Assembly: GCF_003334305.1 (NCBI RefSeq)
Contig: NZ_QOWS01000008.1
Origin: Escherichia coli
GTDB taxonomy: Bacteria > Pseudomonadota > Gammaproteobacteria > Enterobacterales > Enterobacteriaceae
Strand: one strand, 5' to 3'
Length of the DNA stretch: 64,000 bases
In this document: positions 2,382 through 51,128 of the stretch, in pieces
Position numbering within the stretch: position 1 is the stretch's first letter
Layout of the letters: each line of letters opens with the position of its first letter
The notes under the pieces: model-generated
Told to the model about the DNA's origin: nothing
What the model saw: the letters and a program-made list of their open reading frames with translations, nothing else
Databases searched by the model: none
Made by a program: the position numbers and the translations under genes

Positions 2382-4703
2382 ATGATGAATGATTCGTTCT
2401 GCCGCATTATTGCGGGTGAAATTCAGGCGCGCCCGGAACAGGTTGACGCTGCCGTTCGCCTGCTTGACGAAGGGAATACCGTGCCGTTTATCGCACGTTA
2501 TCGTAAGGAAATCACCGGCGGTCTGGATGACACGCAGCTGCGTAATCTGGAAACGCGTCTGAGCTATCTGCGCGAGCTGGAAGAGAGACGTCAGGCGATC
2601 CTCAAATCCATTTCCGAGCAAGGCAAACTCACCGATGATCTGGCGAAGGCCATCAACGCCACCCTAAGCAAAACCGAACTCGAAGACCTCTACCTGCCCT
2701 ACAAACCTAAACGCCGCACCCGCGGGCAAATCGCCATTGAAGCAGGGCTTGAGCCGTTGGCTGACCTGCTGTGGAGCGATCCGTCACACACGCCAGAAGT
2801 CGCCGCTGCACAATATGTTGATGCCGATAAAGGCGTGGCAGATACCAAAGCCGCGCTGGATGGCGCGCGCTATATCCTGATGGAACGGTTTGCCGAAGAT
2901 GCCGCGCTGCTGGCGAAAGTGCGTGATTATCTGTGGAAGAACGCGCATCTGGTCTCAACCGTGGTGAGCGGTAAAGAAGAGGAAGGGGCGAAATTCCGCG
3001 ACTATTTCGATCATCACGAACCGTTGTCCACGGTGCCTTCTCACCGCGCGCTGGCGATGTTCCGTGGGCGTAACGAAGGCGTACTCCAGCTTTCGCTGAA
3101 TGCCGATCCGCAGTTCGATGAGCCGCCCAAAGAGAGCTATTGCGAGCAAATCATCATGGATCACCTTGGCCTGCGCCTGAACAATGCCCCGGCGGATAGC
3201 TGGCGCAAAGGCGTAGTGAGCTGGACCTGGCGCATCAAGGTGCTGATGCATCTGGAAACCGAACTGATGGGTACCGTGCGCGAACGCGCGGAAGATGAAG
3301 CAATCAACGTCTTTGCCCGTAACCTGCACGATCTGCTGATGGCGGCCCCTGCCGGACTGCGTGCAACGATGGGCCTCGATCCGGGTCTGCGTACCGGGGT
3401 AAAAGTGGCGGTGGTCGATGCCACTGGCAAACTGGTGGCGACCGATACCATTTACCCGCACACCGGACAAGCCGCAAAAGCAGCGATGACCGTTGCTGCC
3501 TTGTGTGAAAAACATAACGTTGAACTGGTGGCGATCGGCAACGGTACAGCTTCCCGCGAAACTGAACGTTTCTATCTCGACGTGCAGAAGCAGTTCCCGA
3601 AAGTGACCGCACAGAAAGTGATCGTCAGCGAAGCTGGCGCGTCGGTTTACTCAGCTTCCGAGCTGGCAGCGCAGGAGTTCCCGGATCTCGACGTTTCGCT
3701 GCGTGGTGCGGTATCTATCGCCCGCCGTTTGCAGGATCCGCTGGCGGAGCTGGTGAAAATCGATCCGAAATCTATCGGCGTAGGTCAGTATCAGCATGAC
3801 GTCAGCCAGACGCAACTGGCCCGCAAACTGGATGCAGTAGTAGAAGACTGCGTAAACGCCGTTGGCGTCGATCTCAACACCGCTTCTGTTCCGCTATTAA
3901 CCCGCGTGGCGGGCCTGACGCGCATGATGGCGCAAAACATCGTGGCCTGGCGCGATGAGAACGGCCAGTTCAAGAACCGTCAGCAACTGCTGAAAGTCAG
4001 CCGTCTGGGGCCGAAAGCCTTCGAGCAGTGCGCGGGCTTCCTGCGCATTAACCACGGTGATAACCCGCTGGACGCCTCTACCGTTCACCCGGAAGCCTAT
4101 CCGGTGGTGGAACGCATTCTGGCAGCAACACAGCAGGCACTGAAAGATCTGATGGGTAACAGCAGCGAACTGCGTAACCTGAAAGCGTCTGACTTTACTG
4201 ATGAAAAATTCGGTGTGCCGACAGTAACTGACATCATCAAAGAGCTGGAAAAACCGGGTCGCGATCCGCGTCCGGAATTTAAAACCGCTCAGTTTGCCGA
4301 TGGCGTCGAGACAATGAACGACCTGCAACCGGGTATGATCCTCGAAGGCGCTGTCACCAACGTCACCAACTTTGGCGCGTTTGTCGATATTGGCGTGCAT
4401 CAGGACGGCCTGGTTCACATCTCTTCATTGTCGAACAAGTTTGTGGAAGATCCGCATACCGTGGTGAAAGCGGGCGACATTGTGAAGGTGAAAGTGCTGG
4501 AAGTGGATCTTCAGCGTAAACGTATCGCCCTGACCATGCGTCTGGACGAGCAGCCTGGCGAAACCAACGCCCGTCGCGGCGGCGGTAATGAACGCCCGCA
4601 AAACAACCGCCCGGCAGCCAAACCACGCGGTCGTGAAGCGCAGCCTGCCGGTAATAGCGCGATGATGGATGCGCTGGCGGCGGCAATGGGCAAAAAACGT
4701 TAA
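2382..4703 (+). CDS. tex: Tex/YhgF transcription accessory protein with C-terminal S1 RNA-binding domain (773 aa)
   Basis: 773-aa [23 protein letters not shown]... with YqgF/RNase H-like and HhH regions and a C-terminal S1 domain ([32 protein letters not shown]). Confidence 0.93.
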
Positions 4704-4784
4704 ACGCCCTGATTGACCCCTAAACCTGCGCGATAAGGTGTCCACGCCGCATCTGGCAACGAACGCCTTGTCTGACATAAAAGT

Positions 4785-4812
4785 GCCGGAGAATATCTCC
4801 GGCCTTTTTATT
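4785..4812 (+). terminator. Intrinsic terminator downstream of tex
   Basis: GC hairpin GCCGGAGAATATCTCCGGC followed directly by CTTTTTATT. Confidence 0.6.
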
Positions 4813-5004
4813 CCACAACCAAACTCATAATATATTCCGGCAATATTTATCACTTCATTAACAACTGAAACCTTAATTAAACATTAGCCAGTCCGGGTAA
4901 TTCACTATTCGAATTATATTTTCGCTGCGATATAACCTTGAGCCACATCAACATTGAGTCAGATTATTATTCAAACCAACATTCGCACACATTTTAAGTA
5001 TTGC

Positions 5005-5031
5005 TGATAGAAACCATTCTCATTATCATTG
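5005..5031 (+). promoter_or_regulatory. Candidate Fur box in the feoABC promoter region
   Basis: TGATAGAAACCATTCTCATTATCATTG resembles the GATAATGATAATCATTATC Fur consensus, about 110 bp upstream of the feoA ATG. Confidence 0.5.
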
Positions 5032-5140
5032 TGTTGTTGATTATTTAATCTCTCCTTTGTTGGCAAATCATCTGGTCTCATGTCGCTGTCAAACGCCCCA
5101 TGAGGTAGTTATCCAGTTAATGAGAAACAAGTAGGCACCT

Positions 5141-5368
5141 ATGCAATACACTCCAGATACTGCGTGGAAAATCACTGGCTTTTCCCGTGAAATCAGCCCG
5201 GCATATCGCCAAAAACTGCTTTCTCTTGGCATGTTACCTGGCTCCTCTTTTAATGTGGTGCGCGTCGCTCCACTCGGCGACCCCATTCATATCGAAACCC
5301 GTCGTGTGAGCCTGGTATTACGCAAAAAAGATCTGGCCTTATTAGAAGTGGAAGCGGTTTCCTGTTAA
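5141..5368 (+). CDS. feoA: Ferrous iron transport protein FeoA (75 aa)
   Basis: 75-aa [40 protein letters not shown]..., SH3-like FeoA, directly upstream of feoB. Confidence 0.93.
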
Positions 5369-5384
5369 TACGGTGATAACAACA

Positions 5385-7706
5385 ATGAAAAAATTAACCA
5401 TAGGCTTAATTGGTAATCCAAATTCTGGCAAGACAACCTTATTTAACCAGCTCACTGGCGCACGTCAGCGTGTAGGTAACTGGGCTGGCGTTACCGTCGA
5501 ACGTAAAGAAGGGCAATTCTCCACCACCGATCATCAGGTCACGCTGGTGGACCTGCCCGGCACCTATTCTCTGACCACCATCTCATCGCAGACCTCGCTC
5601 GATGAGCAAATCGCCTGTCACTACATTTTGAGTGGCGACGCCGACCTGCTGATTAACGTGGTGGATGCGTCTAACCTTGAGCGTAACCTGTACCTGACGC
5701 TACAACTGCTGGAACTCGGCATTCCCTGCATCGTGGCACTGAACATGCTCGACATTGCCGAGAAGCAAAATATTCGTATTGAAATTGATACTCTGTCGGC
5801 GCGTCTTGGCTGCCCAGTGATCCCGCTGGTTTCAACCCGTGGTCGCGGTATTGAAGCGCTCAAGCTGGCGATTGATCGCTATAAAGCTAACGAGAATGTG
5901 GAACTGGTGCATTACGCACAGCCGCTACTCAACGAAGCAGATTCACTGGCAAAAGTGATGCCTTCCGACATCCCGCTGAAACAACGTCGCTGGCTGGGCC
6001 TGCAAATGCTGGAAGGCGATATCTACAGCCGCGCCTACGCCGGTGAAGCGTCGCAGCATCTGGATGCCGCCCTCGCCCGTCTGCGTAATGAGATGGACGA
6101 TCCGGCGCTGCACATTGCCGATGCGCGTTACCAGTGCATTGCTGCCATCTGTGATGTGGTAAGCAACACCCTGACGGCAGAACCCAGCCGTTTCACCACT
6201 GCGGTAGATAAAATCGTGCTCAACCGTTTCCTCGGTCTGCCGATTTTCCTCTTTGTGATGTACCTGATGTTCCTGCTGGCTATCAACATCGGCGGGGCGT
6301 TACAGCCGCTGTTTGACGTCGGCTCCGTGGCGCTATTTGTGCATGGTATTCAATGGATTGGCTACACGCTCCACTTCCCGGACTGGCTGACTATCTTCCT
6401 CGCCCAGGGCCTGGGTGGCGGCATTAACACCGTGCTGCCACTGGTGCCGCAGATTGGCATGATGTACCTGTTCCTCTCCTTCCTTGAGGACTCCGGGTAT
6501 ATGGCGCGTGCGGCGTTTGTGATGGACCGTCTGATGCAGGCGCTGGGCTTGCCGGGGAAATCCTTTGTGCCGCTGATCGTCGGTTTCGGTTGTAACGTAC
6601 CGTCGGTAATGGGTGCACGTACGCTTGATGCACCGCGTGAACGTCTGATGACCATCATGATGGCACCGTTTATGTCCTGCGGCGCGCGTCTGGCTATCTT
6701 CGCAGTATTCGCGGCTGCCTTCTTCGGGCAGAACGGTGCGCTGGCGGTCTTCTCGCTGTATATGCTGGGTATTGTGATGGCGGTGCTGACTGGCCTGATG
6801 CTCAAGTACACCATCATGCGCGGTGAAGCGACGCCGTTTGTCATGGAGTTGCCGGTCTATCATGTACCACACGTTAAAAGCCTGATTATCCAGACCTGGC
6901 AGCGTCTGAAAGGCTTCGTTCTGCGTGCTGGTAAAGTGATCATCATCGTCAGCATTTTCCTGAGCGCTTTCAACAGCTTCTCGCTGAGCGGGAAAATCGT
7001 CGATAACATCAACGACTCGGCGCTGGCGTCCGTCAGCCGGGTGATCACCCCGGTCTTCAAGCCAATTGGCGTGCATGAAGATAACTGGCAGGCAACGGTT
7101 GGCCTGTTTACAGGTGCCATGGCGAAAGAAGTGGTAGTGGGTACGCTCAACACCCTCTACACCGCAGAAAATATTCAGGACGAAGAGTTCAATCCGGCAG
7201 AATTTAACCTCGGTGAAGAGCTGTTCAGTGCGATAGATGAAACCTGGCAGAGCCTGAAAGACACCTTCAGCCTTAGCGTACTGATGAACCCCATTGAAGC
7301 CAGCAAAGGCGACGGCGAAATGGGTACCGGGGCGATGGGCGTGATGGATCAGAAATTCGGTAGCGCAGCAGCAGCTTACAGCTACCTGATTTTCGTCCTG
7401 CTGTATGTACCATGTATCTCGGTGATGGGAGCCATCGCCCGTGAATCAAGCCGTGGCTGGATGGGCTTCTCCATCCTGTGGGGGCTGAATATCGCTTACT
7501 CGCTGGCAACATTGTTCTATCAGGTCGCCAGCTACAGTCAGCACCCAACTTACAGCCTGGTGTGCATTCTGGCGGTTATCCTGTTTAACATCGTGGTTAT
7601 CGGTCTGCTGCGCCGCGCGCGTAGCCGGGTGGATATCGAACTGCTGGCAACCCGCAAGTCGGTAAGCAGTTGCTGCGCAGCCAGCACCACCGGTGATTGC
7701 CATTAA
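5385..7706 (+). CDS. feoB: Ferrous iron transporter FeoB, G-protein domain plus polytopic membrane domain (773 aa)
   Basis: Track ORF begins at an upstream GTG (5373); the ATG at 5385 gives [25 protein letters not shown] (P-loop GTPase) followed by a multi-TM permease domain. Confidence 0.95.
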
Positions 7707-49008: not shown

Positions 49009-49103
49009 AAAAAAAAAGCCAGCACCCGGCTGGCTAAGTAATACTGGAAGCAATGTGAGCAATGTCGTGCTTTCAGGTTCTCCGCGAGGGTCTTCCTGAT
49101 CGC
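49009..49103 (-). ncRNA. ryhB: Fur-repressed small RNA RyhB
   Basis: Minus-strand sequence GCGATCAGGAAGACCCTCGCGGAGAACCTGAAAGCACGACATTGCTCACATTGCTTCCAGTATTACTTAGCCAGCCGGGTGCTGGCTTTTTTTTT matches the RyhB sequence as I recall it, including the terminator hairpin and U9 tail. Confidence 0.92.
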
Positions 49104-49130
49104 GAGACAATAATAATCATTCTCATTCGC
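49104..49130 (-). promoter_or_regulatory. Fur box / promoter of ryhB
   Basis: Minus-strand GCGAATGAGAATGATTATTATTG immediately upstream of the RyhB 5' end, with GATAAT/ATCATT hexamers. Confidence 0.6.
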
Positions 49131-49949: not shown

Positions 49950-51128
49950 ATGAGTAATATTGTTTACCTGACAGTAACGGGAGAACAACAAGGAAGCATC
50001 TCCGCAGGTTGTGGGACTTCTGAGTCTACAGGTAATCGTTGGCAGAGCGGGCATGAGGATGAAATATTTACATTCTCACTCTTAAATAATATTAATAATA
50101 CGGGGCTTGGTTCACAGTTCCATGGTATAACATTTTGTAAATTAATTGATAAAAGCACTCCATTATTTATTAATTCCATTAACAATAATGAACAATTATT
50201 TATGGGATTTGACTTCTATCGAATAAATAGATTTGGTAGATGGGAAAAGTATTATTATATACAACTAAAAGGCGCTTTTTTATCGGCTATTCATCATCAG
50301 ATCATTCAAAATCAACTGGATACAGAAACAATAACTGTTAGTTATGAATTTATCCTCTGTCAACATCTTATCGCAAATACCGAGTTCAGCTATTTGGCAC
50401 TCCCTGAAAATTATAACCGTTTGTTTTTACCAAATTCAAAAAACCAAACAAATAATCGTTTCAAAACGTTAAACAGCAAAGCTATTGGCAGGCTACTTGC
50501 TGCTGGTGGCGTATACAATGGGAACATTGAAGGATTCAGAGATACTGCGGAAAAACTGGGTGGAGATGCAATAAAAGGCTATGATCAAATACTAAATGAA
50601 AAAACAGCGGGCATAGCGATAGCAACAGCATCTATTCTTTTAACAAAGCGTTCTAATGTTGATACATATACAGAAATAAATAGTTACTTAGGCAAACTTA
50701 GAGGTCAACAAAAACTTCTTGATGGTATAGACATAATAGAAATAATATACATTAAGAGACCTTCAAAAGACTTAGCTAACTTACGAAAGGAGTTTAATAA
50801 AACTGTAAGAAAAAATTTTCTTATCAAACTTGCAAAAACCTCCGAAGCATCTGGAAGATTCAACGCCGAAGACCTTTTAAGAATGAGAAAGGGCAATGTT
50901 CCTCTAAATTATAATGTTCACCATAAACTATCTCTAGATGATGGTGGTACTAATGATTTCGAAAATTTAGTATTAATCGAAAACGAACCATATCATAAAG
51001 TTTTTACTAACATGCAATCACGAATAGCTAAGGGAATATTAGTAGGTGAAAGCAAAATCACTCCCTGGGCCATTCCATCTGGCTCAATTTATCCTCCCAT
51101 GAAAAATATTATGGACCACACAAAATGA
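49950..51128 (+). CDS. yhhZ: YhhZ-like polymorphic toxin (392 aa): N-terminal Hcp-like domain fused to a C-terminal HNH (beta-beta-alpha-metal) nuclease domain
   Basis: The N-terminus (MSNIVYLTVTGEQQGSISAGCGTS...) resembles Hcp/TssD. The C-terminus carries NYNVHHKLSLDDGGTNDFENLVLIENEPYHKVF (HH...N...H). Local sequence is strongly AT-rich compared with the flanking genes. Confidence 0.8.
   Translation: MSNIVYLTVTGEQQGSISAGCGTSESTGNRWQSGHEDEIFTFSLLNNINNTGLGSQFHGITFCKLIDKSTPLFINSINNNEQLFMGFDFYRINRFGRWEKYYYIQLKGAFLSAIHHQIIQNQLDTETITVSYEFILCQHLIANTEFSYLALPENYNRLFLPNSKNQTNNRFKTLNSKAIGRLLAAGGVYNGNIEGFRDTAEKLGGDAIKGYDQILNEKTAGIAIATASILLTKRSNVDTYTEINSYLGKLRGQQKLLDGIDIIEIIYIKRPSKDLANLRKEFNKTVRKNFLIKLAKTSEASGRFNAEDLLRMRKGNVPLNYNVHHKLSLDDGGTNDFENLVLIENEPYHKVFTNMQSRIAKGILVGESKITPWAIPSGSIYPPMKNIMDHTK

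Follow-up and report, generated by a model that had tools for sequence, protein, structure and literature searches.

The intergenic region between tex and feoA of an Escherichia coli strain as the probable site of the tex 3' end and of the multi-input feoABC promoter region known from K-12

In the window, the 64,000-nucleotide stretch of E. coli DNA that was analyzed, the tex (yhgF) open reading frame ends at position 4703 and feoA starts at position 5141, leaving a non-coding gap of 437 bp (4704-5140). The GC content of 100-bp windows is 28-36% across positions 4800-5050, compared to 50-65% in tex and feoB and ~55% in the flanking genes. The open reading frame ends and the GC profile bear out a long, AT-rich non-coding stretch upstream of feoA, as an earlier note on this DNA had it; the label "leader region", which the same note gave to all 437 bp, is wrong for most of them, since the transcribed leader comprises only ~106 nt (5035-5140). 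The K-12 counterpart of the gap is 456 bp long. In a 50-kb sample of the K-12 genome only one of ~38 intergenic gaps is longer, and none of those between genes transcribed from the same strand. The gap is long, yet not extraordinary.

A 551-bp query around the gap had a match in each of the 5,426 complete E. coli genomes, and was 100% identical to the sequence of strain CFSAN061769. From position 4854 through feoA the window is identical to K-12 MG1655, and K-12 data can therefore be transferred to it base for base; window positions correspond to U00096.2 positions minus 3,533,044, a conversion checked on the FNR box (3537982 converts to 4938, an exact fit). The differences from K-12 are limited to a REP element after tex, a few single-nucleotide polymorphisms up to 4818-4820, and one base at 4853. 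Among nine diverse E. coli strains, variation is found mainly in the REP region and in two spacers, and the blocks containing binding sites are nearly invariant.

A degenerate, partly deleted REP element lies just past the tex stop codon, on the minus strand (4724-4764). Its core (4732-4753) matches the REP core consensus GATGCGGCGTGAACGCCTTATC at 20 of 22 positions, with 0 such matches expected by chance. The element folds as a hairpin in the predicted structure and gives a weak match, below threshold, to the REP-derived naRNA4 family of Rfam (4727-4764). It is followed on the plus strand by an intrinsic (Rho-independent) terminator (4777-4813) consisting of an A-tract, a stem of eight pairs, six of them G-C (4785-4803), and the run CTTTTTATT (T-run 4805-4809), 82 bp past the tex stop codon. 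The 4700-4815 region folds much better than shuffled sequences (z = -4.68). The terminator that had been proposed for tex is thus real. One other terminator-like site was found in the 4500-5400 interval, inside tex on the minus strand (4609-4623).

The segment that holds the REP element and the terminator varies between strains. The REP element is polymorphic within E. coli (window 4710-4745, ~3210-3265 of K-12 locus L001), with a full version, 19 bp longer, in K-12, AF16, and FDAARGOS_1289, and a truncated version in the window strain, O157, UPEC 536, JJ1887, and O91; most of the ~5% by which the segment after tex diverges from K-12 is due to this polymorphism. In addition, two independent IS1 events were observed in the gap. 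In strain E143 (L084), IS1 is inserted at the terminator, at the equivalent of window positions 4780-4789, and the blocks controlling feoA are intact. In strain EC488 (L083), IS1 at the equivalent of position 4826 continues directly into rtcB; a deletion has removed feoABC together with ~18 kb of DNA downstream, up to and including rtcA, which leaves this strain without Feo.

We gathered 80 Enterobacteriaceae loci using FeoA as a query, and calculated identities to the window from the 69 species outside Escherichia. Throughout the family tex is still followed by feoA, the gap measuring roughly 260-750 bp, and identity within it splits into sharp blocks. Mean identity is highest over the -35 element, a second cluster of Fur sites, and the -10 element (5001-5033, 0.87), followed by the FNR box (4938-4951, 0.81), ArcA box 1 (4847-4864, 0.78), and ArcA-like box 2 (4867-4884, 0.74). 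These values of 0.74-0.87 compare with 0.86 in the flanking coding DNA at the ends of tex and feoA. The first 17 nt around the transcription start (5034-5050) give 0.70, an RstA/OmpR-like box (4976-4991) 0.56, and Fur cluster I (4953-4971) 0.51. The spacers at 4811-4843 (0.27) and 4887-4934 (0.21) and the segment containing the REP element and the terminator (4704-4810, 0.18) are at the random level, and the REP element is not conserved outside Escherichia.

Distances between blocks are constrained as well. In 71 of 75 loci, 76-77 bp separate the FNR box from CATTCTCATTATCAT, the Fur/-10 core, which is almost invariant in the 75 loci. Distances from the core to the feoA ATG are of two kinds, either ~121-127 nt or 54-57 nt. 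Two loci have unusually long gaps: Enterobacter sp. RIT418 (L076), with 749 bp, and Klebsiella indica (L071), with 557 bp and 256 nt from the Fur core to the ATG. Both suggest lineage-specific insertions. The conservation analysis across enterobacteria that the earlier note had recommended thus yielded many conserved blocks, and they coincide with DNA-binding sites.

The core σ70 promoter of feoABC (5001-5029, plus strand) consists of a -35 element TTGCTG (5001-5006), a 17-bp spacer, and a -10 element TATCAT (5024-5029) that is nearly invariant across genera. Its hexamers match 8 of 12 consensus positions. A standard promoter scan of 4500-5400 returned nothing at 9/12, and a relaxed scan at 8/12 returned this promoter together with seven other equally weak sites in the AT-rich DNA; with eight such sites, consensus alone cannot pick out the promoter. 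From the published distance between the ArcA site and the mapped transcription start, the feoA start should be U00096.2 position 3538079, corresponding to window position 5035 (plus or minus 1), which falls 6-7 nt past the -10 TATCAT. The earlier note had held that a single start close to feoA, accompanied by no further transcripts or conserved blocks, would speak against additional regulatory elements. The K-12 studies consulted do use one mapped start close to feoA, but the region is rich in conserved blocks, which are binding sites on the DNA and not transcripts.

The Fur-box-like element mentioned in that note is real and degenerate. Three 19-mers overlapping in a 6-bp register cover the -35 element, the spacer, and the -10 element (Fur cluster II, 5003-5033), and each of them matches only 12-13 of the 19 positions of the consensus GATAATGATAATCATTATC. 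This is an array of Fur boxes laid over both promoter hexamers in which no member comes within three mismatches of the consensus; a scan of the window at up to three mismatches accordingly missed feoA, its sole match being at the ryhB promoter. The Fur site is alternatively described as a set of GATAAT hexamer repeats. Chen et al. 2007 predicted Fur sites of 10.9 and 13.4 bits at K-12 positions 3538059 and 3538065 (window 5015 and 5021), and one of 10.5 bits at 3538006 (window 4962). The last falls in Fur cluster I (4953-4971), which contains the conserved motif CAAATTAT and in which positions 4960-4967 are conserved in 60-90% of genera. The two Fur boxes of Kammler were thus re-predicted by Chen et al. 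as two clusters. A Fur ChIP-exo peak lies upstream of feoABC. Fur repression of feoA-lacZ was seen only anaerobically, which was attributed to activation by ArcA and FNR.

For the Fur scan, the ryhB match acted as a positive control. RyhB, a small RNA, is encoded at 49010-49074 on the minus strand (83.1 bits in Rfam), and the match, GACAATAATAATCATTCTC at 49106-49124, just upstream of it, is presumably the Fur box of the ryhB promoter.

The FNR box TTGAGCCACATCAA (4938-4951, plus strand) is an inverted repeat of the TTGAT-N4-ATCAA type matching 9 of 10 consensus positions. Seven FNR-like matches were found in the 64 kb compared to 2.6 expected, and a single match is not significant by itself; the support for this box comes from its conservation, its fixed spacing, and ChIP data, as the K-12 FNR ChIP-seq site at 3537982 coincides with it in both sequence and location. 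Relative to a start at 5035/5036, itself deduced from the published distance, the center of the box is at ~-90.5 to -91.5. Class I-type FNR sites are centered near -61.5, -71.5, -82.5, or -92.5, on one helical face. When iron is replete, Fur has been described as masking the activation of feoABC by FNR.

The FNR box and Fur cluster I also bear on a different reading of the region, in which feoA has a second, upstream promoter (P1) besides the Fur-covered one, as proposed for Yersinia pestis. The candidate consists of TTGAGC (4938-4943), an 18-bp spacer, and GATTAT (4962-4967), and would initiate at ~4974, giving a leader of ~165 nt; the FNR box would then sit on the -35 element and Fur cluster I on the -10 element. 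In its favor, feoABC of Y. pestis is reported to have an upstream P1 overlapping a putative FNR site 198-171 bp before feoA, in addition to a Fur-regulated P2 (PMC5519574); the corresponding distance for the E. coli candidate is 203-174 bp. Conservation of the AATTAT/GATTAT motif and the existence of two separate Fur clusters also favor this reading, as does genomic SELEX, in which RNA polymerase by itself selects a spacer in the gap. The same spacer carries a flag for H-NS in the SELEX data. The candidate, however, matches only 8 of 12 positions with an 18-bp spacer, which is no better than seven other chance-level matches, and the conserved motif is equally well explained by Fur cluster I and an FNR half-site. 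K-12 studies, moreover, position their sites relative to a single mapped start, and the E. coli feo promoter is repressed by iron aerobically, unlike the promoter of Y. pestis (PMC5519574). We consider a second feoA promoter improbable, and this particular candidate, with the FNR and Fur occupancy it entails, equally so. The promoter at 5001-5029 is preferred as the one from which feoABC is transcribed.

Further upstream, ArcA sites were sought using a weight matrix derived from 114 published boxes that did not include the one at feoA. ArcA box 1 (TTGTTAATGAAGTGATAA, 4847-4864, minus strand) consists of two direct repeats 11 bp apart. It scored 16.6 bits, the fourth-best site in the 64-kb window, and two of the top three sites are the known glpD and ugpB sites. 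Box 1 corresponds to the published K-12 ArcA box TTGTTAATGAAATGATAA, which is located under a ChIP peak (ChIP-chip and ChIP-seq) at -191 to -171 from the mapped start; expression of feoABC was 3.7-fold lower in a K-12 arcA mutant. The same matrix revealed a candidate second site, ArcA-like box 2 (ATGTTTAATTAAGGTTTC, 4867-4884, minus strand), 20 bp from box 1. At 12.1 bits it is the ninth-best site in the window and is inside the range of the training sites (10.3 bits and above). Only nine sites of at least 12 bits were found in the 128 kb scanned, and we estimate the probability of a chance second site within 20 bp to be low, roughly 1 in 1,000. Both boxes contain TGTTAA-like direct repeats with an 11-bp center-to-center distance. 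A regular array of 11-bp repeats would place them 22 bp apart; their actual offset is 20 bp, and exactly this value recurs in 26 of the 27 loci that have both boxes. Box 2 is absent from the Enterobacter, Lelliottia, and Leclercia clade. No published assignment was found for 4867-4884, and a second ArcA box beside the published one would be only a small addition to the known map. A bolder arrangement, in which the boxes form a four-repeat ArcA array (11-9-11 bp spacing) and the -35 and -10 elements of a P1-like second promoter are at the same time the FNR box and Fur cluster I, seems to us a long shot. If true, FNR and Fur would switch transcription between two starts, and not merely turn one promoter up or down.

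Two side observations concern the ArcA matches. At position 4853, inside box 1, the window and all seven other aligned E. coli strains have C and K-12 has T; C is also the commoner base in other genera, which makes the K-12 base the minority allele. The highest score of the ArcA matrix in the window (17.1 bits) belongs to TTGTAAATTAATTGATAA at 50135-50152 on the plus strand, which is not among the training boxes.

ArcA box 1 also contains TTATCAnnnnnTTAACA, a motif proposed as an OmpR/RstA site, and the conserved block at 4844-4886 might be mainly a site for OmpR/RstA rather than ArcA, bringing envelope-stress or acid input to feoABC. The second half, TGAAAC-N-TTAAAC, resembles OmpR half-sites such as those of ompC and ompF. 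Gerken et al. listed two OmpR candidates, TTATCAtttcaTTAACA (-294 to -278, window 4847-4863) and CCAACAttcgCACACA (-165 to -150, window 4976-4991). In their gel shift experiments, unphosphorylated OmpR shifted only the larger fragment containing TTATCAtttcaTTAACA, a result obtained at the level of the fragment, and did not shift the smaller fragment with the 4976-4991 box; OmpR overproduction doubled feo::lacZ expression. Against this, nowhere in 4704-5140 does the sequence agree at nine or more of the 12 specified positions with the OmpR consensus GTTACA-N4-GTTACA or with the RstA consensus TACATNTNGTTACA, the two boxes in the block score high with the ArcA matrix (16.6 and 12.1 bits), and the block lies under ArcA ChIP peaks upstream of an operon whose expression falls 3.7-fold in the arcA mutant. 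Given the fragment-level binding, the region may act as an OmpR site without fitting the consensus, and the two assignments are not mutually exclusive. On balance, we find it doubtful that OmpR/RstA is the main ligand of the block, and continue to regard it as an ArcA-binding element.

The 4976-4991 box, at ~-59 to -44 on the plus strand, is a separate RstA/OmpR-like candidate. It reads CCAACATTCGCACACA in E. coli and TACATTCCGTCACA in Salmonella and is conserved as ACATTCCGTCACATTT in many genera. Salmonella has a TACA-N6-CACA repeat of the RstA type here, and E. coli has AACA-N6-CACA. The Salmonella enterica feoA promoter has an RstA box according to Jeon 2008, as cited in Gerken 2020, and the RstA footprint reported there is probably this box. 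Consensus scans for CRP and NagC found nothing, and those for IHF and Fis gave weak, degenerate matches. The guess that the AT-rich tract holds further regulator sites, "FNR or others", has thus proved correct: an FNR box, ArcA sites, a second Fur cluster, and an RstA/OmpR-like box were found, and these sites coincide with phylogenetic footprints and with published ChIP or EMSA data for K-12.

The 5' untranslated leader of feoA (5035-5140, ~106 nt from the deduced start) has a conserved first 15 nt, a variable middle, and a conserved ribosome-binding site, AAGTAGG (5129-5135). The length of the gap and the presence of short ATG-initiated open reading frames in the leader left room for an independent small RNA, a leader peptide or attenuator, or a regulatory RNA with a defined structure, located in the AT-rich tract or in the leader; a small RNA and a leader peptide had been suggested in the earlier note. 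An Rfam search with permissive settings over 4300-5600 returned no family at threshold; the best match (23.8 bits compared to a cut-off of 50) was the tex terminator read on the other strand. A search of the whole window at gathering thresholds likewise gave no match in the gap, and the sub-threshold ones corresponded to the terminator or the REP element. No terminator was found in the promoter region or the leader when 4500-5400 was scanned, so that the tex terminator is the only one in the gap. The leader folds no better than shuffled sequences (z = +0.61), and z values for the 225-nt tract 4811-5035 are -0.94 and -0.71 on the two strands.

Comparison of leaders gave the same answer. RNAalifold revealed no consensus structure in 17 long leaders (-0.02 kcal/mol). 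Helices proposed by eye (a long-range GUUGGC/GUUAAU pairing, a CUGG/CCAG alternative, and a CUCAUG/CAUGAG hairpin, CTCATG/CATGAG in the DNA) can form, and pair in 80-86% of cells; they were rejected for showing no covariation above shuffles, of which 484/500 and 275/500 reached the observed covariation score. The upstream open reading frames at 5080-5103 (seven codons) and 5120-5134 (four codons) were rejected because their start codons are conserved in only 27 and 7 of 75 loci, respectively, and a 36-amino acid minus-strand open reading frame (4971-5081) because it is intact in only four of 60. In the group comprising Enterobacter, Lelliottia, Leclercia, Huaxiibacter, and Silvania, the central ~70 nt of the leader (window 5051-5125) are missing altogether (loci L040, L042, L048, L056, L060, L063, L069, L072, L073, L076-L079, and L081); this is the group with the short core-to-ATG distance of 54-57 nt, compared to 121-127 nt elsewhere. 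Neither a small RNA gene, with no Rfam match, no second terminator, and fold z values near zero, nor a leader peptide or attenuator, with no conserved upstream open reading frame and no terminator in 5035-5140, nor a riboswitch or structured regulatory leader, with no fold signal, no covariation above shuffles, and ~70 nt absent in one clade, is supported. The idea of a hidden RNA or peptide is already largely refuted, and we regard it as very improbable.

Taken together, the gap is very probably the 3' end of tex joined to the multi-input promoter region of feoABC already described for E. coli K-12. Transcription of tex would end at the REP element and the intrinsic terminator (4724-4810), and a single σ70 promoter (TTGCTG-17-TATCAT, 5001-5029) would drive feoABC from ~5035. 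When iron is plentiful, Fur-Fe2+ bound to the sites over the -35 and -10 elements (5003-5033) and to the cluster at ~4953-4971 would block RNA polymerase. When oxygen is absent, FNR at 4938-4951 (~-91, on a fixed helical face) and phosphorylated ArcA at the tandem boxes (4847-4884, ~-190 to -150) would both activate from upstream. OmpR, and RstA in Salmonella, may add envelope and pH input through the upstream block, the 4976-4991 box, or both. The resulting mRNA would carry a ~106-nt leader with no detectable regulatory structure that ends in the AAGTAGG ribosome-binding site.

The anatomy of this control region, its motif matches, and their conservation and spacing are seen directly in the window and in the related loci. 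The literature supplies the mapped start, the gel shift with OmpR, and the evidence that ArcA, FNR, and Fur bind in vivo. Activation by FNR in a class I-type manner, a role for the second ArcA box, and any co-operation among the factors have been inferred. Points against the model are promoter hexamers that match at 8/12, weak Fur boxes, OmpR evidence at the level of fragments, and a start position taken from a published distance.

Enteric bacteria living in the anaerobic gut take up ferrous iron mainly through Feo, which also has a part in virulence, and the feoABC control region shows how one promoter integrates signals from iron, oxygen, and the envelope. This regulatory logic is already established for E. 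coli K-12, and the window adds nothing new in kind. What is added here is a base-level map of published sites on this strain, a family-wide footprint of constrained blocks and spacings, a candidate second ArcA box, and evidence against a hidden RNA gene, a leader peptide, or a structured leader.

The closest known system is the K-12 feoABC promoter region itself (Kammler 1993; FNR, ArcA, and Fur ChIP studies; Gerken 2020). It is the same locus, with FNR, ArcA, Fur, and OmpR-candidate motifs at equal distances from the ATG; the window differs from it in a REP element after tex that is 19 bp shorter and diverged, and in the C at 4853 in place of T. The feoA promoter of Salmonella enterica has its ArcA, FNR, Fur, and -10 blocks in the same order as E. 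coli and at identical spacing. The feoABC operon of Y. pestis (O'Connor 2017, PMC5519574) also has a long upstream region, with a putative FNR site ~200 bp before feoA, and, as in E. coli, a Fur site at the proximal promoter; binding of an unidentified protein was observed far upstream. Unlike in E. coli, fnr, arcA, and rstAB mutations have no effect in Y. pestis and iron repression fails aerobically, whereas the E. coli feo promoter is repressed by iron even when placed in Y. pestis (PMC5519574).
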